Below, piece by piece: positions 2,266-42,395 of a DNA stretch of 64,000 nucleotides. The stretch covers positions 79,254 through 143,253 of the forward strand of contig CBDFJU010000003.1 in NCBI GenBank assembly GCA_965248515.1, in the 5' to 3' direction. Source of the DNA: Dehalococcoidia bacterium. GTDB taxonomy: Bacteria; Chloroflexota; Dehalococcoidia; SHYB01. A program made the position numbers and the translations under genes. A model generated the notes under the pieces. The model did not search any database. It worked only from the letters and a program-made list of their open reading frames with translations, and was not told where the DNA came from. How positions within the stretch are numbered: position 1 is the first letter of the stretch; each line of letters starts with the position of its first letter.

Positions 2266-3405
2266 ATGTCGTTTTTCATCGCGCCCGTGAGCACGCGAAC
2301 CCTGGTATTGGCCATGGGTCTCGTCGCGGGCATAGTCATCGCCGCCTGCGGCGGCGATGGGCCCGCGCCCACGCCTGTCGATCCAACACCAGTCGCCGTC
2401 CTGGAGCCGACAGCGACCTCGGCCCCACCACCTCGGGCACGGGACGCCGATGCCGTCCGTCTCGCCGAGTTGGCTCAGGCGGCCGTCGTCCGGGCGCGGG
2501 AGGTCGTATCGGACGCGGTCCTTCCTCAGATCTACATCGATCCCAACGGGGGAAGGCATGTCTTTTACTTCACGGACGCTGCATCGACGCGCAGCTTCGA
2601 GATCGTTGCGCGAGACACGGCGGCTCCGCCCGGCGAGTGGGAAGTCATCCTCACCGGACTCTCGCCTCTGCTCGGCCACCCCAGGGCCGGCATCGACGCC
2701 GATGCGCTGGCCATAGGTCCCGAGACGGCGATTCGCGTCTCTGCCCAGCCTTGGCCGGGGTGCGAGACGACGACTCTGACGCTGGGTGGGCAAGGCGACC
2801 ACCTCACTTGGACGGTGTTCTGTAACACCGCCACTGGAGGGCTGGTCCTGGGTTTCGTCGACGGCGGCACCGGCGAGTTCATACCATCGACCGCTCCACC
2901 TGCCCTAACACCACCCACCGCCGAGCTCGTTTCTGAAATCGGCACCCAGGTGGGAGCGATCGCGCCCGACTTCACCCTGGAACAGGCTCGGGGCGGGGAG
3001 TTGTCCCTTGCCTCGTATCGCGGCGAAAGCAACGTGGTCCTCATCTTCTATCGCGGCGCCTGGTGAGTCCACTGCCGTCGGCAGCTCGGCGAGCTGCAAC
3101 AGTCCTACGATCGGATACAGCGCCTCGATGCCGAGATCGTCGCCATGAGTACCGACGAGGCTGACGGCATCATGGCCCTGGCCGACCGGCTCGACCTCGA
3201 TTTCCCGCTCCTCGTCGACCCCATCGCCGACGTCGTCCGCGAGTACGGCGTCTTCAACCTCCTGGGCGACGGTCTGGCAACCGCCTCGACCTTCATCCTC
3301 GACAAGAACGGGCGGATCGCCTACCGGTACGTCGGAGACGGCATCAGCGACCGTCCCTCGGTCGATCTCGTAATCGAGGAGCTCGGGGCGGTCCAGCCCA
3401 GCTAG
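2266..3405 (+). CDS. lipoprotein with C-terminal TlpA/ResA-like thiol-disulfide oxidoreductase domain; putative selenoprotein (in-frame UGA at 3064-3066 in WUVHC = UxxC motif)
   Basis: Signal peptide plus lipobox (IAACGG). ORF 2182..3066 stops at TGA and the same frame continues as ORF 3145..3405 (redoxin C-terminus). The TGA sits exactly where the first Cys of the WCxxC motif is expected (VLIFYRGAW-TGA-VHC). Confidence 0.6.
3081..3097 (+). other. SECIS-like hairpin GCAGCUC-GGC-GAGCUGC 15 nt downstream of in-frame UGA
   Basis: perfect 7-bp inverted repeat read directly; shares GCAGC/GCUGC stem with hairpin at 16453-16468. Confidence 0.45.
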
Positions 3406-16128: not shown

Positions 16129-16205
16129 TGGTCGGGGCGCCGAGATTTGAACTCGGGACCCCCTGCACCCCATGCAGGTGCGCTACCGGGCTGCGCCACG
16201 CCCCG
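16129..16205 (-). tRNA. tRNA-Pro (anticodon GGG)
   Basis: 77 nt cloverleaf folded by hand: 7-bp acceptor CGGGGCG/CGCCCCG, D stem GCGC, anticodon stem CCUGC/GCAGG with loop AUGGGGU, T-arm CCGAG-UUCAAAU-CUCGG, encoded CCA. Confidence 0.9.
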
Positions 16206-16392
16206 ACGCTGTGCCCGGCGATCCCAGATTGGGTGGCGCCGCCGAGCCCCGGTAGCTTATCACGCGCTTCTCAGAAGGGGCAAGGGAGCGCGCCTGTATT
16301 CGGCGCGATTGAAGACCACCGCGGTGGCTCTGTTGATTTCACACGGTCGCCAGAATAAAATCGCGGCACGAGCCACGCCAAGAGGTGCCGCA

Positions 16393-17010
16393 ATGAGCGA
16401 CCGTATCAGCTTCGACGTCTATTTCGACTGCACCTGACCTCACGTTTATCAAGCAGCAGTTTGGCTGCGAAACGTGAGAGAGCGCTACGGCGACCGGCTC
16501 CAGATCAACTGGAAGAACTTCCCGCTGGAGCAGGTCAACTCGAAAGAGGGGCCTGACTGGTTCGTCTGGGACCAGGGTGACGACTACCCCAGTCGAGGCC
16601 TGCCCGCCTTCCGTGCCCTCGAGGCGGCCCGCCTTCAGGGCAACGCCGAGTTCGAGCGGCTGCAGTTCGCCCTCCTCGACGGACGCCACGAGCGACGCAA
16701 GGACTTCACCGATCCCGACGACATCGACGAGCTCGCGAAGGAGTCTGGCCTCGACCTCGAGCGACTCCACAAGGACATGACCAGCCCCGATATCCTGCAG
16801 CGGGTGGCGAAAGACTACCAGGCCGGCAAAGAGCGAGGAGTCTTTGGGACACCCACCTTCGTTTTCGAGAACGAGAAACAGGCCTTCGTCCGCCTCAAGG
16901 CCCCTCAAAGTGTCGACGAGTCGGTGCGCGCGTTCGAGATGTTCGTCGAGAACTTCCGTGACAACGGATACTTCGACGAGATCAAGCGGCCGAAGCCGCC
17001 GCGCGACTAG
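16393..17010 (+). CDS. DsbA/FrnE-like thioredoxin-fold oxidoreductase; putative selenoprotein (in-frame UGA at 16435-16437, motif C-T-U-P-H-V)
   Basis: ATG 16393 with AAGAGGTG RBS; 14 codons then TGA, then 12 further codons in the same frame lead into ORF 16474..17010. RISFDVYFDCT-U-PHVY...INWKNFPLEQ aligns to FrnE RVEIWSDIACPWCY...VVWRSFELDP with U on the nucleophilic Cys; C-terminal GVFGTPTFVF is DsbA-like. Confidence 0.6.
16453..16468 (+). other. SECIS-like hairpin GCAGC-AGUUUG-GCUGC 16 nt after UGA
   Basis: 5-bp perfect stem, loop contains GU; same stem sequence as hairpin at 3081-3097. Confidence 0.45.
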
Positions 17011-17040: not shown

Positions 17041-18021
17041 TTACCGAAAGATCTCCGACGCGCGGTCGACCAGGTCGGGCGGCAGCGCGACGCCCAGTCG
17101 CTCCGCCGTGCGCTGATTCAGCCACAGGCGGGTGACGGCTCCCGTCGAAACCGGCTCCGGGCCCGCCCCTTCGCCTCGCAGCACCCTCACCGCAAGCAGT
17201 CCGGCACGGCGGCCGTGGTCCTCGTAGTCGATGCCCACCGACGCCAGGGCACCATCCTTCGCCGGCCCCTCGCTCCAACCGATGACTGCTATACCGCGCT
17301 CGTCGGCGCTCGACCGGATGTCGCTGAACTCGGCGTCCAGGAGCGGGCCTGGAGACAGGACGAGGACGCCCGCGCCATCCTCGATTACCTGGACGGTCGC
17401 CTGGGCAATCTGGTCCCTGCCGGTCACACCCGTCGCGATGACGCGGAGGCCGGCCCGAGTCGCCTCGGTGGAAAGCAGGCCGACACCGGCCCGGGAGTCC
17501 GCATCGAGCTGATCGAACAGCAGGCCCACCACACCCACCTCGGGAAGAAGCCGGCGGAGAGTCGCCACCAGTTCCACCGCGGGGACGGGCGAGGCCGCCC
17601 CGGCAACGATCGCCCGGTGGCTCCATTCGCCATGAGTGGCGCCGCCCACGGTGGGGTCGCCACTCATGGCGAAGAAGACCTGCTTCCGATCCGTCGCCTT
17701 CAACGCCGCCTCCAGCGCCGGGGTCCCAAGCGCCAGCAGATAGTCCACTTCCTCGTCGTCGACGAACTCCGCCGCTAGCTGGTCGAGCGGCTCCTCGCGG
17801 AACTTGGCGTTACGCCGAAGGAAGCGCATGTTCTCCCCGGCCCTGAAGTCAGCGTCGTCCAGCGCCTCGAGAAAGCCGGTGCGGGCGTCCTCCACAGACT
17901 CGCCGAGGTCGGGTTCGAGGATGCCGACGATGATAACGTCGCGCTGGCACGCCGATAGCAGGACCGCGAAGGCGACGGCCAGGAACGCCAGGCTTGCTCT
18001 CCGCGCGATGGGTTTCTTCAT
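17041..18021 (-). CDS. ABC transporter substrate-binding lipoprotein (ABC_sub_bind/BMP-like), orphan
   Basis: signal peptide plus LSAC lipobox; PF04392-like pattern; no cognate permease/ATPase adjacent. Confidence 0.6.
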   Translation of the reverse strand: MKKPIARRASLAFLAVAFAVLLSACQRDVIIVGILEPDLGESVEDARTGFLEALDDADFRAGENMRFLRRNAKFREEPLDQLAAEFVDDEEVDYLLALGTPALEAALKATDRKQVFFAMSGDPTVGGATHGEWSHRAIVAGAASPVPAVELVATLRRLLPEVGVVGLLFDQLDADSRAGVGLLSTEATRAGLRVIATGVTGRDQIAQATVQVIEDGAGVLVLSPGPLLDAEFSDIRSSADERGIAVIGWSEGPAKDGALASVGIDYEDHGRRAGLLAVRVLRGEGAGPEPVSTGAVTRLWLNQRTAERLGVALPPDLVDRASEIFR

Positions 18022-18186
18022 GGGCTCGCCACAGTATAGAGTAGGCGCGCGGCCTGGGAACGCCGCGTCTTGACCGGGCCGCGACCCCGCGAGTAGGATT
18101 GGGATGTCCCGAGCGTCCGAAAACTTGCATCCATGGGGTTCCATGGGCCCCATGCTCTTACAGAGCGCGCCCTAGCGCGCACGCCA

Positions 18187-23613: not shown

Positions 23614-25050
23614 TCAGGATGCGAGGTCGAATAGCGTCGTCACCCGATCCACCGCCGCCGGCTCGGTCGAAATCACCAGGAGTGTCTCGTCGCCTCCGAA
23701 GGCGACATGGTGTCGTTTGCCATCGAACGAGCCAGTGGCCACGGAGTCGGTCTTGTCGAGCCCGATGTCCCGCGCCTCCAACAACCGAACGTAGCCGTCG
23801 TAGAACTCCTCAGCGTCGCGTTCCGTGCCCCAACGGGCCAGGTTCAAGAACAGGCTCGAGCCGCCCGGCCCCCGAAGCAGCACGTAGCGATCGCCGCCCC
23901 AGCCGGCGGCCGCCCTGCTCGCGCGCCGGGTGGATATCCGCTCCTCGAGGACGAGCTTGTAGAAGAACTCGCCCATGACATCCACGTCCGCTTCCTCCCA
24001 GCCCTCGCCGAGGGCCTGGGCGACGTCCGGCAGGTCGATGGTAAGCGCCGGCTCGCGCTCGTCGTACTTGCCCGGATGCATGATCTGCTCGCTCGTGGTC
24101 GGTGGGTCGGCATAGGCGGCGTTGACTGCATCCCAACCGCCCTGGCCGAACAGGTAAAGCACGAATCCGAGGCCCTCCCGATAGGGGAAGGTCGCGCTCT
24201 CCTCGATGACCCTCGGTACGTCCGGGCTCAGCCCTTCCACCTCCTGGGCCTGACGGATCGTCTCGGCCTGATCGAGGTGCTCGCCAGCGTACCGGCCCGA
24301 GGCGAGTGTTGCGTCGCCTTCAAAGAGCACCCGGAGCGCAAAGCGGGCCTCCGAATCCTCTCCCGCGGCGTCCAGCATCGCCGTCAGGTCGAACAGGCTC
24401 TGCTGGATCGCGTGGGCGAACTCGTGGGAGTAGATGAACTCTTCGAGGAGGTCGACGGCCCCATCATTGGCCAGAACAAACAACTCCCCTGACTCAGGGT
24501 TGAACTGCCCGAGGACCTGCGACTGGGAGTGGGCCAGGGTGAGCTCCTTCAAGTCGTGGTTCTCGTCCAGGAGCCCGAGAAGGAGCAGCACCTCCTGGGA
24601 CGCGGCCAGCTCGGCTTCGTCGGCCTCGTCGAACTGCGCCTCGAGAATGGCGTCGAACTCCTCCCGCGTGATCAGCCGGCGTTGCAGCGCATCTCCGGTC
24701 GGCGCGCCCCTATCTTCCGCGACCCGCTGCTCGATGGCGTCGAGCACGAGGCTGACCTCCGGGGACAGGGTTGGGGGCGCAGGCGGAGGTGTCGCCGTCG
24801 CGGCAGTCTCGGTTGGGGGGAGCGACGTCACGCCGGGACGGGTCGCCGTCGCGGTTACAGGATCAGGCAACACGGAGGGCGAGGAGGAAGTCGTTGCGGT
24901 GGGAAGCACGGTTGCAGTCGGCTCGGGCGTCGGCGATAGGCCATCGCCCGATGCGCATCCTGCGACGACCAGGCCCAGTCCAATCGCTAGAGCCGCAACG
25001 CCAAACCTCTTCGAGTGAGACGGCCCAGGTTTCGTTGGAGACAAGCTCAT
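23614..25050 (-). CDS. secreted lipoprotein, putative Zn-metallopeptidase (HEFAH motif)
   Basis: lipobox VVAGCASG; Pro/Thr-rich linker; SHEFAHAIQ HExxH-type motif. Confidence 0.5.
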   Translation of the reverse strand: MSLSPTKPGPSHSKRFGVAALAIGLGLVVAGCASGDGLSPTPEPTATVLPTATTSSSPSVLPDPVTATATRPGVTSLPPTETAATATPPPAPPTLSPEVSLVLDAIEQRVAEDRGAPTGDALQRRLITREEFDAILEAQFDEADEAELAASQEVLLLLGLLDENHDLKELTLAHSQSQVLGQFNPESGELFVLANDGAVDLLEEFIYSHEFAHAIQQSLFDLTAMLDAAGEDSEARFALRVLFEGDATLASGRYAGEHLDQAETIRQAQEVEGLSPDVPRVIEESATFPYREGLGFVLYLFGQGGWDAVNAAYADPPTTSEQIMHPGKYDEREPALTIDLPDVAQALGEGWEEADVDVMGEFFYKLVLEERISTRRASRAAAGWGGDRYVLLRGPGGSSLFLNLARWGTERDAEEFYDGYVRLLEARDIGLDKTDSVATGSFDGKRHHVAFGGDETLLVISTEPAAVDRVTTLFDLAS

Positions 25051-29117: not shown

Positions 29118-31220
29118 TCAACCGGCCACCCGCACCGCCGCCGCCAGCCGCTGCCGCGACTCCGTCTCCGTGACGGTCGCGACGACGGCGGCCAGCGTCT
29201 CGCGGTAGGTTTCGACAAACGCGGGGTCGATCTCCCCCGCGTTCACGATTCCCCGGTAGCGCTCGGTGGCACGAGTGAGAGCCGACGCGAGCCATGCTTC
29301 GCCGCGGAGGTCGGCAAGGACGAGGAGGAAACGTGCGTCATTCTCCAGCGAGATCGGGAGCCCGGGCTGCGCCCGTAGTCTGGGCGCATCGAAGGCTAAG
29401 AACGCGAGCGCGTCCTCGACGGTCTCCTCGTGGCCCCGGTCATCGAAGGCGAGGGTCAGGCGCGCCGCAACATCGGGGTCGACGTTCACCAGCCGGTAGA
29501 TGGCGCGGGCCGGCGGCACTCGGATTGGGCTCGCCTCGCGGAGCGCGTCCACCGCCGCAGCCAGGTTGGAGCCGAAGAGGCGGGCCGCTTCGCCGGCGTG
29601 CTGCACCAGAAACGGCTCGAGGTGGAGCCCGGTGTCGACGAATACCCGCATGGCGTCGACAGACGATCTCGCCCCGATGGCGACGACCCGCTCGTAGACC
29701 GCATCGAGATACGCATTTTGGCGGAGCGGCCGGGCGGGCAGGCCTTTCAGGACCAGCGGCACGATCCGGGCGAGCCCGTCCGGGTCCCGGCCGTCCCCGA
29801 ACCCCAGGCGCGGGATGACCTCCTCCGGGTCGAGGAGTGCGCGCACCGTCGAGGCATCCCTCGTCACGACGAACCGCAAGTTCTCCTGTGATAGCCCGAG
29901 CAGCAGGTCGCTGGCCAACTCCCGGTCGATGCTGCCAACCACGTCGAGAACGAAATTGAGGTCGCGGAAGCCGCGCCTGTTCAGCCCTTGAATGAATGCC
30001 TCGAAGGAGGTTAGTGCGCTCGCCGGTTCGCGTTGCATTGCGGCGGCCAGGTCGAGGAGCTCGACGTGGAAGGGGTGGAGGGCTTCGCGCACCCGCCTCG
30101 CCACCCGTCGCTCCTCGGCCGTCTGTCCCTCGGCGATGAGTCCCGCAAGAGTCGGATGTTCGAGTGTGGACACGAAATCGAGCAGTGACTCCTCCCGCGC
30201 CAGCCGTTCCCTGGCGGCGTTGACCCGTTCGTCCTGAGGCAGGTCCCGCAGCTCGAGCACAAACTCGAAAGCCTGTGGGATGCGCCCGTCCTCGAGAGCG
30301 TTGGGATACGCGCCGAAGACGAACGCAGTGTCGCGGAGGTAGTCGCGCCAGAAGTGGAACTGGTTGGCTACGGGCTCGCCATCGATCTCCTTGAAGAACA
30401 GGTCGAACTGCTCGGCGAAGTCGCGGACCCGCTGTCGCTGCTCCCTGGCCGCGACGCGAGCCACGGCCTCGGGCAGCCGAGCCGATGGGTCGAGGTCGAC
30501 CTCGTACCCGTCCATGGGCACGCTCCCGATGCCGTAGACGGACGAGGCTACCCGGCGCTGGTCGTCGGGCAGCGAGCGGTACCAACGGACCGCCTCGTCC
30601 CACGACGCGAGATCGCCCGAGGCGAGGAACGGGCTGTAGTACTTCCGCAATATCGGTGGGACGAGGTTGAGGTTCCCTCCGGTGAGGGAGACGATGTCGG
30701 CCTCGCCCAGGTGGTACAGCCCTGGATAGTCGCCAACCGAAAGGTTCGGGATGCGCCGCAGCCGCTCCCGCAGAGGTTCGAAGCCATCGGGCGGCTGCTG
30801 CATGAACGTGTCGAGGTCTCGCCGCAGGGCCAGGAGCGCCGGCGACAGTCGCTCCCCCGACGGCACCGCCCACGAAAGCTCGGGTCTTCCGATCACGGGG
30901 AAGGGACCCCAGATCGAATGGGAGATCTCGTGGACGATCGATGCGGGCCGCGCCTGCCCGACGCCGATCCAATGCTCGAAGCCACGGCTTCCGAACCATC
31001 CCGGGCGGCCCAGGACGTGATGGACCCGCATCGCTCGCACCACGGCCTCGCCCTGGGGCGTGAGATTGTAAAGAGAAAGGACCGCTTCGACCCGCTCCCG
31101 GGCCCAGTCATCCCGCGGCGCCAGGGGCGGCTGGCCGTCGCGACCGGATCGGAGAGAGCCGCCGCACGAGGCCGCCACCAGGGTCAGCCCGAGGGCCAGA
31201 AGGACGACGCGGCGGGGCAT
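29118..31220 (-). CDS. large secreted lipoprotein of unknown function (HEISH motif)
   Basis: signal peptide with lipobox AASCGG; 700 aa; VHEISHSIW HExxH-like. Confidence 0.55.
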   Translation of the reverse strand: MPRRVVLLALGLTLVAASCGGSLRSGRDGQPPLAPRDDWARERVEAVLSLYNLTPQGEAVVRAMRVHHVLGRPGWFGSRGFEHWIGVGQARPASIVHEISHSIWGPFPVIGRPELSWAVPSGERLSPALLALRRDLDTFMQQPPDGFEPLRERLRRIPNLSVGDYPGLYHLGEADIVSLTGGNLNLVPPILRKYYSPFLASGDLASWDEAVRWYRSLPDDQRRVASSVYGIGSVPMDGYEVDLDPSARLPEAVARVAAREQRQRVRDFAEQFDLFFKEIDGEPVANQFHFWRDYLRDTAFVFGAYPNALEDGRIPQAFEFVLELRDLPQDERVNAARERLAREESLLDFVSTLEHPTLAGLIAEGQTAEERRVARRVREALHPFHVELLDLAAAMQREPASALTSFEAFIQGLNRRGFRDLNFVLDVVGSIDRELASDLLLGLSQENLRFVVTRDASTVRALLDPEEVIPRLGFGDGRDPDGLARIVPLVLKGLPARPLRQNAYLDAVYERVVAIGARSSVDAMRVFVDTGLHLEPFLVQHAGEAARLFGSNLAAAVDALREASPIRVPPARAIYRLVNVDPDVAARLTLAFDDRGHEETVEDALAFLAFDAPRLRAQPGLPISLENDARFLLVLADLRGEAWLASALTRATERYRGIVNAGEIDPAFVETYRETLAAVVATVTETESRQRLAAAVRVAG

Positions 31221-37931: not shown

Positions 37932-39227
37932 TCAGGGAAGATGACTCGCGTATACGGTCCCGACATGCCCTGTCTCCTCGAGCCGAGCGTATTCCTCCCG
38001 CGACATCGCCATCAACTCGCGATAGACATACTCATTGTACTCTCCAAGCCGCACGGGCGGGGTCCTGAGCTCGTTCGGAGTATCCTCGGCGGTCCACATC
38101 AGTCCGGGATAGCGGTGAGTGCCCGCATCGGCGTGGACGAACTCCTTGAAAAAGCCTTGGTGGTCCAGATGGGCATCTTCGTAGAGATCGCTGTCGTCCT
38201 GCACCGCCCCGGAGGGAACGCCGTTGGCCTGCAGAGCCGCCATCACCTCCACTGGACTCTTTTCCTTCGTCCATGACTCGATGAGCCGGTCGAGTTCGTC
38301 CTGGTGCTTCCAGCGGGCCAGCCCGTTCCGAAAACTTGCCCGCTGGGACCAGGCGGGGTTACCTATGGCCCGACAGAAGCCTCGCCACTCCTCGTCGTTG
38401 GCGACGGCTATGGTAACCCAGCGGTCCTCGCCGCGGCAACGGTAAACGCCGTGCGGCGCCATCGATGGGTGACGGTTGCCCAGGGGGCCCTGAACACGAT
38501 CGTTCATGGTGTAGTCCATGATGGCCTCGCCGAGGTACGGCATGAAGTTTTCCACCTGGGGAAGCTCGATGATCTGCCCTTCCCCGGTCCGCCGCCGGTG
38601 ACGCAGGGCCATCATGACCGCCAGGGCGCCGTTCACACCCCCCGCGGCGTCGCCCATGTAGACTTCGTCCGCCGACGTCGCGTCGGTGTCTGGATAGCCC
38701 CGAAGCGCCGTGTGACCCGCCGTGCCTTCGAGCTGCATCCCGAACGAGCGGTAGTTCTTGTACTTTCCGCTGAGGCCGTAGGCCGGCATGCGCAGCATGA
38801 TCAGGTCGGGCCTGACGCGCGCCAACTCCTCGTAGGTGATGTGGAGCTTTTCGATGGTCTCGGGAACGTTGTTCTCCACGAACACGTCGGCGACGGAGAC
38901 AAGCCGGTGGAAGACTTCGAGACCCTCTGGGGTCCGGAGGTCGACGGTCATGCTCAGCTTGTTCCGAGCGTGACTCTGAAAGATCGGGTAGCGGTTCCAG
39001 GGCCGCTCTCCCGGGTCCCAGTCCGGGTAGGCGACCTGCCAGTTTCTCCGCAGCCTAGGCATCTCCTTCGGCACGTGCACCATATGGCCGCGCGTGTTCG
39101 GCTGCACGAACTGAATCGACTCGACGCGGATCACCTCCGCGCCCCAGTCGGCGAGGAGCATGGTGGCGTGCGGGCCGGCCCAGACGGCCGTAAGATCGAG
39201 GACGCGGATTCCGCTCAGCGGGAGTTT
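37932..39227 (-). CDS. CaiB/BaiF family III CoA-transferase
   Basis: LSGIRVLDLTAVWAGP N-terminus; start trimmed to GTG after upstream gene stop. Confidence 0.8.
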   Translation of the reverse strand, partial: KLPLSGIRVLDLTAVWAGPHATMLLADWGAEVIRVESIQFVQPNTRGHMVHVPKEMPRLRRNWQVAYPDWDPGERPWNRYPIFQSHARNKLSMTVDLRTPEGLEVFHRLVSVADVFVENNVPETIEKLHITYEELARVRPDLIMLRMPAYGLSGKYKNYRSFGMQLEGTAGHTALRGYPDTDATSADEVYMGDAAGGVNGALAVMMALRHRRRTGEGQIIELPQVENFMPYLGEAIMDYTMNDRVQGPLGNRHPSMAPHGVYRCRGEDRWVTIAVANDEEWRGFCRAIGNPAWSQRASFRNGLARWKHQDELDRLIESWTKEKSPVEVMAALQANGVPSGAVQDDSDLYEDAHLDHQGFFKEFVHADAGTHRYPGLMWTAEDTPNELRTPPVRLGEYNEYVYRELMAMSREEYARLEETGHVGTVYASHLP

Positions 39228-39241
39228 CACGATGGCATTCT

Positions 39242-40453
39242 TCAAATCACCCCGAGCCGGCGCAGCCTCGCAAGCTCCGCGCGGCTGTAGCCCAGGATGC
39301 CGCACAACACCGCCTCGTTATGCTGACCGAGCCGGGGCGCCGGACGCCGAAACGCCCACGGCGACCGGTTCATGATGAAGGGACGGCCTGGCTGAGTGAT
39401 CTCCCCGAGCCCCGGATACTCCGCTTGCAGCCAGAAGTCCCGCTCGCGGAAGTGCGGGTCGCCGAGCACGTCGGCCATGTCGTAGATGGGCCCGGACGGG
39501 ATATGGAGCGCCTGACTGAGCTCGAAGCACTCCCGCTTGCTGTGCTCCATCAGGAACGGGATGTAGTGCGCATCGAACTCCTCGGAAACCCCAGGACGGG
39601 AGCGCGCCACCTCGTCCTTGAAGAGGGGGTCAGCGAGCAGCTCGGGTCGCCCGATCATCTCAACGGTCAAGGGGAACCTGGCCGAGGAGCCGTTGATGTT
39701 GACGTAGCCGTCGGCGCAGGGCCGCACGCCCCCGCCGGGAGCCGAGCCGGGAGTCCGGCGCTCGTTGATCTCTCCTGTGTACTGATAGCCCACGAGCATC
39801 GTCGTCCGCCGGTCCTGGCTGGCCGCCTGTGCGCGCATCATCGATACGTCGAGGCGCTCGCCCCGCCGTGTCGCCTCCGCCTCCCAAAGCGCGATGGCGG
39901 TCGCCGTGGCGGCCACCGCACCCACCTGGTACTGGATGACGTTGCCGCCGAGCTTGAGAGGCGCTCGATCGGGCAACCCGGTGGCGTACATCGGGCCGCC
40001 GAGGGCATACGTGACGATCTCCGCCGACTTGTAGTCGCGGTAGGGCCCTTGCTGTCCGAAGCCCGAGATCGAGGTCATCACCAGACGGGGGTTGATCGAA
40101 TGGAGCGCCTCGTACCCCAGGCCGAGCGACGGCAGGACCCCGCTCGCGGAGCTTTCCACCAAGATGTCCGCGGTTCGAGCCAGCTCCAGGAGGACTCGGC
40201 GTCCCGCTCCGACTCCGAGATCGAGGGTTATCCCGCGCTTGTTGGTGTTGAGGTGCAGGAACGGGCCGCTTCTTTCCGGATGAGGCTCGTCGTGGAAGAA
40301 GGGCGCCATGCGTCGCGTCGGATCGCCACTACCCGGACGCTCGACCTTGATGACGTCGGCCCCGAAATCGGCTAGCTGCTTGGTGCAGTAGGCCCCGGCG
40401 ATGTTCTCGGTCAGGTCGAGGACAGTGAGCCCTTGGAGAGGCTGGTCGGGCAT
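39242..40453 (-). CDS. CaiB/BaiF family III CoA-transferase (paralogue)
   Basis: LQGLTVLDLTENIAGAY; start at MPDQP with GGTGGAG RBS. Confidence 0.8.
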   Translation of the reverse strand: MPDQPLQGLTVLDLTENIAGAYCTKQLADFGADVIKVERPGSGDPTRRMAPFFHDEPHPERSGPFLHLNTNKRGITLDLGVGAGRRVLLELARTADILVESSASGVLPSLGLGYEALHSINPRLVMTSISGFGQQGPYRDYKSAEIVTYALGGPMYATGLPDRAPLKLGGNVIQYQVGAVAATATAIALWEAEATRRGERLDVSMMRAQAASQDRRTTMLVGYQYTGEINERRTPGSAPGGGVRPCADGYVNINGSSARFPLTVEMIGRPELLADPLFKDEVARSRPGVSEEFDAHYIPFLMEHSKRECFELSQALHIPSGPIYDMADVLGDPHFRERDFWLQAEYPGLGEITQPGRPFIMNRSPWAFRRPAPRLGQHNEAVLCGILGYSRAELARLRRLGVI

Positions 40454-40581
40454 GGGACGGCTCCACCGGAGGTTCGGCGCAACGATGGGCAATAATTATA
40501 CGGGCGGTGAGAAGGAGACGCTACGGGTGCGGTTTGCACCACATGCGCGTAGTCTGATAAATTCATGCCTGGGGTGGTTCA

Positions 40582-41225: not shown

Positions 41226-42395
41226 ATGGACTTCGGCTTTACCCCCGAGCAGGAGGCCTTTCGCAGGGAGATTCGCGAGTTCCTCGCGGCGGAGGTCCCG
41301 AGCGATTGGCCGGGGCGCCATTTCACGTGGATCACCCACGAGGAATGGCTCCAGGCGCGCGAGTTCGATCGGAAGCTTGCCGCGAAGGGCTGGTTGACCT
41401 TGGCCTGGCCCAAGCAGTACGGCGGCCAGGAGCGCTCTGCCATCGAGCAGCTCGTCTTCCAGGAAGAGATGGGCTATCACCACGCCCCCAACGGCGGCGG
41501 TTGGGGTCATGGGCCTGTGTTCGTCGGCCCCACGATCTATCACTACGGCAGCGACGAGATGAAGCAGCAGTTCCTGCCGCCCATTTCTCGAGGCGAGGCG
41601 ATATGGTGCCAGGGCTTCTCGGAGCCCGACGCCGGCTCCGATCTGGCGAGCCTTCAGACCAGGGCCGTCCGGGATGGAGACGACTTCGTGGTCAACGGCG
41701 TCAAGCATTTCGTCGGCCAGGGGGGACGCGCCGACTGGTGCATCCTCGCTGTTCGCACCGACCCGGACGCCCCGAGGCACAAGGGCGTCAGCACGATCTT
41801 GATGGACATGCATAGCCCCGGCGTCACGACGGAGCCGATGCCGACGCTGCCGACACACGGCGCTCAGACGCGGATCATCATGGACGACGTGCGCATTCCC
41901 GCCGGGCACCTGGTGGGCGAAGAGAACAAGGGCTTCTACCAGATGATGTCGACGATGGACTTCGAGCGGAACCGGATCATGCACGCTGCGGAAGCCCACC
42001 GCTTCATCGACGACCTCTGGGACTACGCCCGGGAGCGCGGGCTCCTGCGCAACCCCATCGTGCGCCACAAGCTGGCCGATCGGAAGATCGAGGCCAGGAC
42101 AGCCATCCTCCACAACTACCGGATCGCGTGGCTGCTCAACGCCGGGAAGATCCCGAACTACGAGGCGTCGATCGGCAAGATGTTCACCGAAGAGCTACGC
42201 CAGCGGGTCGCGGCAACGGGCATGGAAGTCCTGGGCCTCCACAGCCAACTCTCCCTGGACGAGCGGCACTCGCCGGACCTGGGAAAGCTCCAGGACTACT
42301 TTCTGGCGATGGTCTCCGTCACCATCGTCGGCGGCAGCTCGGAGATCCAACGCAACGTCATCGCAAACCGGGGACTGGGCCTGCCACGGGGCTAG
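41226..42395 (+). CDS. acyl-CoA dehydrogenase family protein
   Basis: MDFGFTPEQEAFR N-terminus, GFSEPDAGSD motif. Confidence 0.85.
   Translation: MDFGFTPEQEAFRREIREFLAAEVPSDWPGRHFTWITHEEWLQAREFDRKLAAKGWLTLAWPKQYGGQERSAIEQLVFQEEMGYHHAPNGGGWGHGPVFVGPTIYHYGSDEMKQQFLPPISRGEAIWCQGFSEPDAGSDLASLQTRAVRDGDDFVVNGVKHFVGQGGRADWCILAVRTDPDAPRHKGVSTILMDMHSPGVTTEPMPTLPTHGAQTRIIMDDVRIPAGHLVGEENKGFYQMMSTMDFERNRIMHAAEAHRFIDDLWDYARERGLLRNPIVRHKLADRKIEARTAILHNYRIAWLLNAGKIPNYEASIGKMFTEELRQRVAATGMEVLGLHSQLSLDERHSPDLGKLQDYFLAMVSVTIVGGSSEIQRNVIANRGLGLPRG

Follow-up and report, generated by a model that had tools for sequence, protein, structure and literature searches.

The reading frame and its homologues

The forward strand of the 64 kb window (the whole stretch of DNA analysed here) carries a frame of 205 codons that runs from ATG 16393 to TAG 17008-17010 and is interrupted by a single TGA at 16435-16437. 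The frame opens with MSDRISFDVYFDCT, reaches the TGA, goes on as PHVYQAAVWLRNV (PHVYQAAVWLRNVRERYGDRLQINW) and meets its next stop only at the TAG. For this gene the mechanical ORF list holds only 16474-17010, with GTG as its start. In the original prediction, ATG 16393 was proposed to open, behind a ribosome-binding site, a frame that passes through the UGA into the listed ORF, and the GTG was taken for an internal Val codon. Both proposals held, with all coordinates right: the GTG lies inside a stem, no SD-like run was found upstream of it, and the 14 codons ahead of the TGA are conserved in orthologues. A start at this GTG would delete strand β1 and the active site. One sigma-70-like site was found upstream of the gene, compared with 0.1 expected from shuffles; it lies about 32 nt 5′ of ATG 16393, so that a transcript from this candidate promoter would begin just ahead of the ribosome-binding site (Table 1).

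Table 1. Features of the DsbA-like gene and of the second in-frame TGA (positions are those of the window)
Feature	Position	Strand	Basis or remark
Second in-frame TGA (3064-3066), motif W-U-V-H-C, followed by hairpin GCAGCUC-GGC-GAGCUGC (3081-3097)	3064-3097	+	
Sigma-70-like promoter candidate, TTGATT-17 nt-TAAAAT	16333-16361	+	Consensus match only
SD-like sequence AAGAGGTG	16380-16387	+	5 nt before ATG 16393
Full CDS of the predicted DsbA-like selenoprotein	16393-17010	+	205 codons including Sec15; Pfam DSBA and Cys homologues
UGA, predicted Sec15 codon, motif D-C-T-U-P-H-V	16435-16437	+	Invariant Cys column of Cys-form homologues
Bacterial SECIS-type hairpin	16439-16478	+	Fold of -22.9 kcal/mol; fit to the bSECIS model
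GTG, start of the listed short ORF, read here as an internal Val codon	16474-16476	+	Within the lower stem of the SECIS, 3′ arm

The protein search returned 783 homologues in two classes, full-length proteins of 204-211 aa and "short" proteins of 159-191 aa. All of the closest relatives (55-91% identity) fell into the short class, including three of 178 aa (P0001-P0003). The full-length Cys homologues align from residue 1 of the window protein, and where it has the TGA they invariably carry Cys, within D-[YF]-x-C-P-[YWF]-V. Translating 5′ of the called starts of the short homologues uncovered the same in-frame TGA after a conserved peptide, as in MSDRISFDVYFDCL-TGA-PHVYQAAVWLRNV and MDKRVSVDVYFDFL-TGA-PHVYEAAVWLRKV, which explains why these predictions are only 159-191 aa long. 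DNA was fetched for 84 homologous loci, comprising 80 loci from species-level genomes and four from metagenomes, and all 80 genome loci were titled Chloroflexota (Dehalococcoidia, Thermomicrobiales, Thermoflexus or Chloroflexia). At the codon in question TGA stood in 66 of the 84 loci and TGC or TGT in the other 18, and the Sec form occurred in about 80% of the species-level genomes sampled. The alignment to Cys homologues thus bears out the earlier placement of the UGA on the catalytic Cys. The 66 TGA loci were independently assembled, 62 of them from different species-level genomes, with frames intact on both sides of the codon.

The stretch ahead of the TGA also appears to be coding. In 10 of 10 loci checked, the TGA is preceded at a distance of exactly 14 codons by an ATG, which has a purine-rich SD-like run ahead of it, and among the Sec forms the codons of the upstream peptide vary most at their third position (entropy 1.37 vs about 1.0). 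On this comparative evidence these 14 codons are translated. When the TGA was read as Cys, the protein matched Pfam DSBA (PF01323) over residues 8-163 and profile positions 3-176 of 191 (E = 2e-20), scoring 73.8 bits against a curated cut-off of 25.6. Since this match begins at residue 8 and spans the TGA, the 14 upstream codons belong to the domain.

The TGA could instead be a true stop, the functional gene then being the GTG 16474 ORF of 178 residues, with the 14 upstream codons as a chance ORF or a leader peptide. The public calls of the closest homologues do begin after the TGA (178 aa in P0001-P0003 and 159-191 aa in the others), and Sec machinery was not seen within the window, both of which would suit such a reading. 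Against it, the GTG has no SD sequence and is buried in a stable stem, whereas the upstream peptide, the ATG at codon -14 and the SD-like run are kept in loci whose DsbA-like proteins share 48-80% identity with that of the window. Moreover, both Pfam DSBA and the full-length Cys homologues align straight through the TGA, and the truncated product would lose the invariant residues D12, C15 and P16 along with strand β1 of the thioredoxin fold. A start at GTG 16474 was therefore rejected, in view of the ATG and SD-like run in 10/10 loci and of the domain spanning the TGA, and we regard a true stop as very improbable.

The hairpin behind the UGA

The GCAGC-AGTTTG-GCTGC element at 16453-16468, 15 nt after the TGA, had been noticed in the original prediction as a SECIS-like hairpin. 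It is present, and its size was understated, as it forms only the top of a 14 bp hairpin. The upper stem of 5 bp (16453-16457 with 16464-16468) carries the apical loop AGUUUG (16458-16463), and below an internal loop a lower stem of 9 bp is formed by CUCACGUUU (16439-16447) pairing with AAACGUGAG (16470-16478). A 60-nt segment folded at -22.9 kcal/mol, with a z-score of -2.77 against dinucleotide shuffles. The bSECIS model (PMC13188914) allows an apical loop of 3-9 nt, an upper stem of 4-16 bp and 16-37 nt between the UGA and the loop, with G in the first two loop positions and a minimum free energy of at most -7.5 kcal/mol. The hairpin at 16439-16478 falls within these limits on every count, having a loop of 6 nt with G at position 2 followed by U, an upper stem of 5 bp, a spacing of 20 nt, and an energy of -22.9 kcal/mol as a whole and of -8.4 kcal/mol in its apical part, in agreement with the earlier proposal.

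The hairpin shares with the consensus model of bacterial SECIS elements, of which E. coli fdhF and fdnG are the experimentally characterised examples, its site directly 3′ of the UGA inside the ORF, its small apical loop in which G and U occupy positions 2 and 3, its 20 nt spacing and its sub-threshold energy. It has no sequence similarity to the curated Rfam models, and a local scan of the hairpin region gave no match to an Rfam SECIS model. The gathering-threshold Rfam scan of the whole window gave no hit at all; as it missed the tRNA-Pro (58.8 bits in the local scan), it is unreliable as a negative result.

The apical stem-loop is formed by the codons of a conserved A-A-V-W-L, so that protein and RNA constraints overlap in the putative SECIS of the window and part of the conservation of the hairpin is due to the protein. 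Synonymous-codon shuffles, which preserve each protein sequence, were therefore used, with the energy taken at the position of the apical hairpin. Among 64 Sec forms the mean energy was -9.6 kcal/mol, compared with -3.9 kcal/mol in the shuffles, and the z-scores were below 0 in all 64 (mean -1.78). The 14 Cys forms gave -3.0 vs -2.2 kcal/mol, which was not significant. The difference in apical stability between Sec and Cys forms reached p = 3.6e-7 (for sequences that are phylogenetically related), while the minimum free energy of the whole segment, set against such shuffles, separated Sec from Cys forms only weakly (p = 0.067). Pairing with U32 requires a purine as the last base of the first Ala codon, and a purine was present there in 59/64 Sec forms vs 8/14 Cys forms (p = 0.003).

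Signs of compensation were found within the stem as well. Hairpin positions 24 and 34 are coupled, the stem slides instead of breaking, and at the outer positions 17-36 and 18-35 the base pair changes between AU, GC, UA and CG across 51 distinct Sec-form sequences. For these 51 related sequences the covariation score was 0.134 vs 0.074 in shuffles, a value reached by none of 500 shuffles. The register of the lower stem was not conserved between orthologue lineages. Selection on the hairpin at the RNA level, confined to the TGA-bearing genes, is strongly supported by these comparisons. A good hairpin was also seen in two Cys forms, L063 and L085. The latter is a close Cys form with TGC at the codon and 59% identity, which belongs to the same U/C-x-H clade and keeps an identical hairpin; we read it as a gene that changed from Sec to Cys recently and still carries its SECIS as a relic.

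The other in-frame TGA of Table 1 lies in a gene of the AhpC/TSA-Redoxin type (about 2266-3405) with a lipoprotein-like N-terminus, whose match to AhpC-TSA (PF00578, E = 3e-30) spans the TGA. The loop of its hairpin begins 21 nt after the UGA. This gene is a credible second selenoprotein gene of the window, and a second TGA at a redox Cys position with a hairpin of its own supports Sec decoding in this genome. The stems at 3064 and 16453 had been described as identical and as pointing to a shared recoding element; the identity is real, whereas the shared element did not survive comparison, as orthologues vary the stem freely. Their stems at the same place include GCGGC/GCUGC, CAGCC/GGCUG, GCGGGC/GCUCGC and GCUGGC/GCUGGC, so that what is conserved is not the stem sequence. 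The proposed search for further copies, run on the 64 kb window as GCAGC-N3-9-GCTGC, returned the two copies at 3081 and 16453 only, each 14-15 nt after an in-frame TGA, and this count is no more than chance would give (1.34 expected in the window). With two cases only, the identical 5-mers of the two hairpins cannot be told apart from coincidence. What they have in common is the general bacterial SECIS architecture rather than a sequence element, namely an apical loop that begins 20-21 nt behind the UGA and has G within its first two positions.

Fold, relatives and active site

No hydrophobic leader was recognised from the sequence and the model of a homologue; the protein opens with strand β1 (MSDRISFDVYFD) and is predicted to be cytoplasmic. 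The AF2 model of the Cys homologue P0007, which is 51% identical to the window protein, has a pLDDT of 92 and shows a thioredoxin fold that carries a helical insertion, its nucleophile lying at the start of α1. In this model Cys15 caps the N-terminus of α1, after strand 5-11 and before helix 16-35. No NCBIfam model specific for the family was found, the best match scoring 19 bits vs a cut-off of 190. The gene neighbourhood offered no functional lead, and a convergent ABC_sub_bind neighbour is kept in the closest clade only (L001-L011).

The closest structural relative is DR2335 of Deinococcus radiodurans (PDB 7DK9, and 7DKA for its C24S mutant). The Foldseek comparison of the P0007 model with 7DK9 gave a TM score of 0.85, ahead of YjbH, Rv2466c and FrnE, and the family profile matched 7DK9 at full length (query positions 6-203, E = 4e-31). 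Both proteins are predicted to be cytoplasmic, and they share an N-terminal motif of the DLYFDFLCPYA type with one Cys and no resolving Cys; the column of Cys24 in DR2335 is that of Sec15 in the window protein, with Cys there and Sec here. DR2335 is longer (232 aa with insertions, compared with 205 residues). The description of DR2335-type proteins in PMC8945050 gives them a predicted cytoplasmic location and one conserved Cys, and reports neither function nor expression; a literature search on 7DK9 and 7DKA gave nothing relevant.

The nearest characterised relative is Rv2466c (mycoredoxin-2) of Mycobacterium tuberculosis (PDB 4NXI, 4ZIL and 5XUR), which has the same DsbA-like architecture over its full length (E about 3e-6, TM about 0.72). 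It is a cytoplasmic mycothiol-dependent reductase, and the window protein is likewise predicted to be cytoplasmic. Rv2466c carries a CPWC dithiol and depends on mycothiol, whereas the window protein has one predicted Sec in a motif without a second Cys. Rv2466c can work by a monothiol-disulfide mechanism, in which the N-terminal nucleophile acts alone with a low-molecular-weight thiol, mycothiol (PMC6178380). Several Cys homologues are annotated with the Rv2466c-like domain PF22234, which gave no hit to the window protein at E ≤ 0.01.

The resemblance to FrnE, to which the protein had been likened originally, is more limited. FrnE (D. radiodurans DR_0659, PDB 5CNW) is also a cytoplasmic oxidoreductase of the DsbA family with its nucleophile at the same structural position. 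It has a CP(W/F)C motif and, in many members, a C-terminal CxxxxC (PMC8945050), and the window protein has neither. FrnE structures match only its C-terminal part (query 79-160, E = 2e-7). Assignment to the DsbA family therefore stands, by the PF01323 match given above, while the full-length relatives are DR2335 and Rv2466c rather than FrnE. Our results place the protein, by sequence and profile comparison, in a Chloroflexota-wide family with the motif D-x-x-(U/C)-P-x-V that is related to DR2335.

The CxxC or UxxC redox pair of classical DsbA is absent. The active site reads U-P-H-V here and C-P-x-V across the family, with A or T rarely in the last place. The resolving Cys is thus indeed lacking, as the original prediction had it, and its replacement by Val is a trait of the family, no peculiarity of this gene. 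The window protein and L001, L007 and L008 have C-x-U, with a Cys at the second position ahead of the Sec. In most orthologues this position holds F or Y, so that Cys13 is not a general resolving residue.

Selenocysteine decoding and the place of the family

Taken together, 16393-17010 very probably encodes a 205-residue cytoplasmic protein of DsbA fold, whose sole active-site nucleophile would be Sec15, inserted at UGA 16435-16437. The core of the original prediction (a DsbA-family protein with Sec at the catalytic Cys, no resolving Cys, a SECIS-like hairpin and an internal Val in place of the listed start) is strongly supported by the comparison of homologous loci. Translation would start at ATG 16393 downstream of the AAGAGGTG ribosome-binding site, and the hairpin at 16439-16478 inside the coding sequence would act as a bacterial SECIS at the UGA. 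SelB carrying Sec-tRNA(Sec) would bind this element in competition with RF2, Sec would be inserted at the UGA, and translation would go on to TAG 17010. The dependence on SelB and tRNA-Sec is assumed by analogy with the established bacterial mechanism; the UGA, the frame kept on both sides of it and the selection on the hairpin are drawn directly from the aligned loci.

No selA, selB or selD domain was found in the 20 larger ORFs of the window scanned against Pfam, and ARAGORN found no tRNA-Sec in the 64 kb window, whose sole tRNA is a tRNA-Pro, or in the 84 fetched loci. Sec decoding in this organism is suggested by comparative and lineage-level evidence. SelD, SelA and SelB are recorded in Sphaerobacter, Thermomicrobium, Nitrolancetus and Dehalogenimonas (PMC5029168, supplement), MAGs of Dehalococcoidia are reported to contain 46-49 selenoprotein genes (PMC13326102), and tRNA-Sec variants with unusual 8/4 structures have been described in Chloroflexi (PMC5389517).

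These unusual 8/4 structures also leave some room for the UGA to be read as another residue, either as Cys by a tRNA-Sec-like tRNA-Cys(UCA) or, through a suppressor or an altered code, as Trp or Gly, given that the inserted residue is predicted from sequence comparison and that the analysis used cannot tell insertion of Cys from insertion of Sec. However, the residue in homologues is always Cys and never Trp or Gly. TGA terminates 11 of the 47 well-supported (GC3-supported) ORFs of the window, which indicates a standard genetic code and argues against reassignment, so that an alternative code was rejected. The hairpin fits the SelB-type SECIS model and appears to be selected in the TGA forms only, and these lineages are known to have the Sec trait and large selenoproteomes. 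A reading of the UGA as anything other than Sec is accordingly judged about as improbable as a true stop. A pseudogene, or a sequencing or assembly error that turned TGC into TGA in one genome, can be dismissed even though TGA is one base from TGC and L085 shows that a close Cys form exists, since the same TGA recurs, with intact frames, in the 66 independently assembled loci, of which 62 come from different species-level genomes; together with the conserved upstream ATG, SD-like run and peptide, this excludes sequencing error, pseudogene and internal GTG start alike.

For the selenoprotein with Sec15 as its nucleophile, the most likely chemistry is an exchange of the monothiol type, proposed because Rv2466c, the nearest characterised relative, works in this way in its monothiol mode. 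We put it forward tentatively and at somewhat less than even confidence, the biochemical function being deduced throughout. The selenolate of Sec15 might attack a disulfide or an S-thiolated substrate to form a selenenylsulfide, which could then be resolved by a second molecule, either a low-molecular-weight thiol or a reductase partner.

Catalogues of selenoproteins already include DsbA-like ones. A UxxC form was reported in the Sargasso Sea study of 2005 (PMC1088965), DsbA-like selenoproteins were counted in 41 organisms in 2016, and a 2026 review citing Peng et al. 2016 lists a "DsbA-like protein form 2" with PF01323, the motif DxxUP and MDP6049977.1 as an example (PMC13188914). DsbA is not mentioned in the deep-Sep paper. 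The window gene resembles the catalogued proteins in its PF01323 domain, in having Sec where the first active-site Cys would stand, at the N-terminal end of α1, and in a SECIS directly downstream. It differs from the UxxC form 1, which has a resolving Cys where Val stands here, and its D12-C-T-U15-P16 corresponds exactly to the DxxUP of form 2, a likeness seen in domain and motif. The gene is therefore a solid case of a previously unannotated addition to the catalogued DsbA-like selenoproteins, one that would not surprise a specialist. It is a real but ordinary selenoprotein gene, which leaves the understanding of Sec decoding unchanged.

Its practical consequence lies in the databases. Gene callers routinely shorten genes with a Sec UGA, NCBIfam has no model to rescue these ones, and the catalytic N-terminus with the sole redox-active residue is missing from essentially every public prediction of the Sec form. 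For the nearest homologues in the databases the called length is 159-191 aa and not about 205, so that functional or structural inference from those entries is wrong.

Beyond the single gene, it is conceivable, if rather unlikely, that the DR2335-like family in Dehalococcoidia and their relatives is mainly a selenoenzyme family catalysing an uncharacterised monoselenol redox reaction dependent on low-molecular-weight thiols. TAG predominates among the stop codons of the window and of the loci with the Sec form. Heavy use of UGA as Sec in these lineages might be linked to such TAG-dominated stop usage. A literature search on stop-codon usage in Chloroflexi gave nothing relevant, and neither this link nor a mainly selenoenzyme family was found in the literature searched. 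The gene offers a clean example of a SECIS whose apical stem-loop is written in the codons of a conserved peptide motif and degenerates in Cys forms, and it ties the catalogued DsbA-like selenoproteins to the structurally solved and functionally uncharacterised DR2335 family.

Relatives of the DsbA-like selenoprotein gene

The nearest Cys relative of the selenoprotein encoded in the window is P0004, a database protein with 59% identity that is encoded at L085, a further Cys-form locus. The GCAGCAGTTTGGCTGC hairpin is retained there unchanged and is identical to that of the window, so that L085 looks like a recent Sec-to-Cys conversion in which the hairpin persists as a relic SECIS. Across lineages the apical loop keeps a steady position, at about +25 to +29. 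The register of the lower helix varies by lineage, because in several orthologues (L012, L060, L072 and L077) the UGA codon itself is paired in the predicted lower stem, UGACCCUA with UAGGGUCA.

A Cys lies two residues N-terminal to Sec (C-T-U or C-L/V-U) in the window protein (16429-16437) and at the homologous loci L001, L007 and L008, and together with Sec it could form an internal selenenylsulfide. It is limited to this small subclade and is not conserved, the other orthologues carrying F or Y at the position.

A second in-frame TGA and the surrounding genes

The AhpC/TSA-Redoxin gene is probably a second selenoprotein gene in the window. Its in-frame TGA, in the motif W-U-V-H-C, falls inside the Pfam AhpC-TSA match (E = 3e-30), and a hairpin with a 7-bp stem and a GGC loop starts 14 nt past it; the 60-nt fold following the TGA was no more stable than shuffled sequences (z = +0.6).

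Features of the window and the Cys-form locus L085
Feature	Position	Strand	Remarks
AhpC/TSA-Redoxin gene	2266-3405	+	lipoprotein-like N-terminus; TGA 3064-3066; hairpin 3081-3097
tRNA-Pro(GGG)	16129-16205	-	directly upstream of selenoprotein gene, opposite strand
ABC-transporter substrate-binding gene (PF04392)	17041-18153	-	convergent with selenoprotein gene
Large ORF	23614-25050	-	478 aa; strong GC3 coding signal
Large ORF	29118-31220	-	700 aa; strong GC3 coding signal
Two adjacent CoA-transferase family III genes	37932-40492	-	457 aa and 416 aa
Acyl-CoA dehydrogenase gene	41226-42395		opposite strand to CoA-transferase pair
P0004, Cys form of DsbA-like protein	L085:538-1227		codon TGC; motif C-S-H-T

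The PF04392 gene is separated from the DsbA-like gene by only about 30 nt, stop to stop, an arrangement retained in the closest clade (L001-L011) and absent beyond it. The whole-window Rfam scan at the gathering threshold returned zero matches, even for tRNA-Pro(GGG), and this negative is unreliable because a local scan scored the tRNA at 58.8 bits, well above its gathering score of 29. Pfam scanning (E up to 1e-5) found zero families in the two large ORFs, and the acyl-CoA dehydrogenase gene lies about 0.7 kb from the CoA-transferase pair.

Stop-codon usage

TGA is usually the dominant stop codon in high-GC bacteria. Among 47 GC3-supported ORFs of the window, which is 65% GC, the commonest stop is TAG (28, with 11 TGA and 8 TAA). 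Among the fetched homologous loci (within L001-L084) of at least 58% GC, Sec-form loci likewise favoured TAG (107, with 52 TGA and 23 TAA), whereas Cys-form loci favoured TGA (26, with 10 TAA and 8 TAG), a difference (Fisher p = 1e-6) that is confounded with lineage, Dehalococcoidia versus Thermomicrobiales. We speculate that TAG-dominated termination might be tied to heavy use of UGA as a Sec codon.
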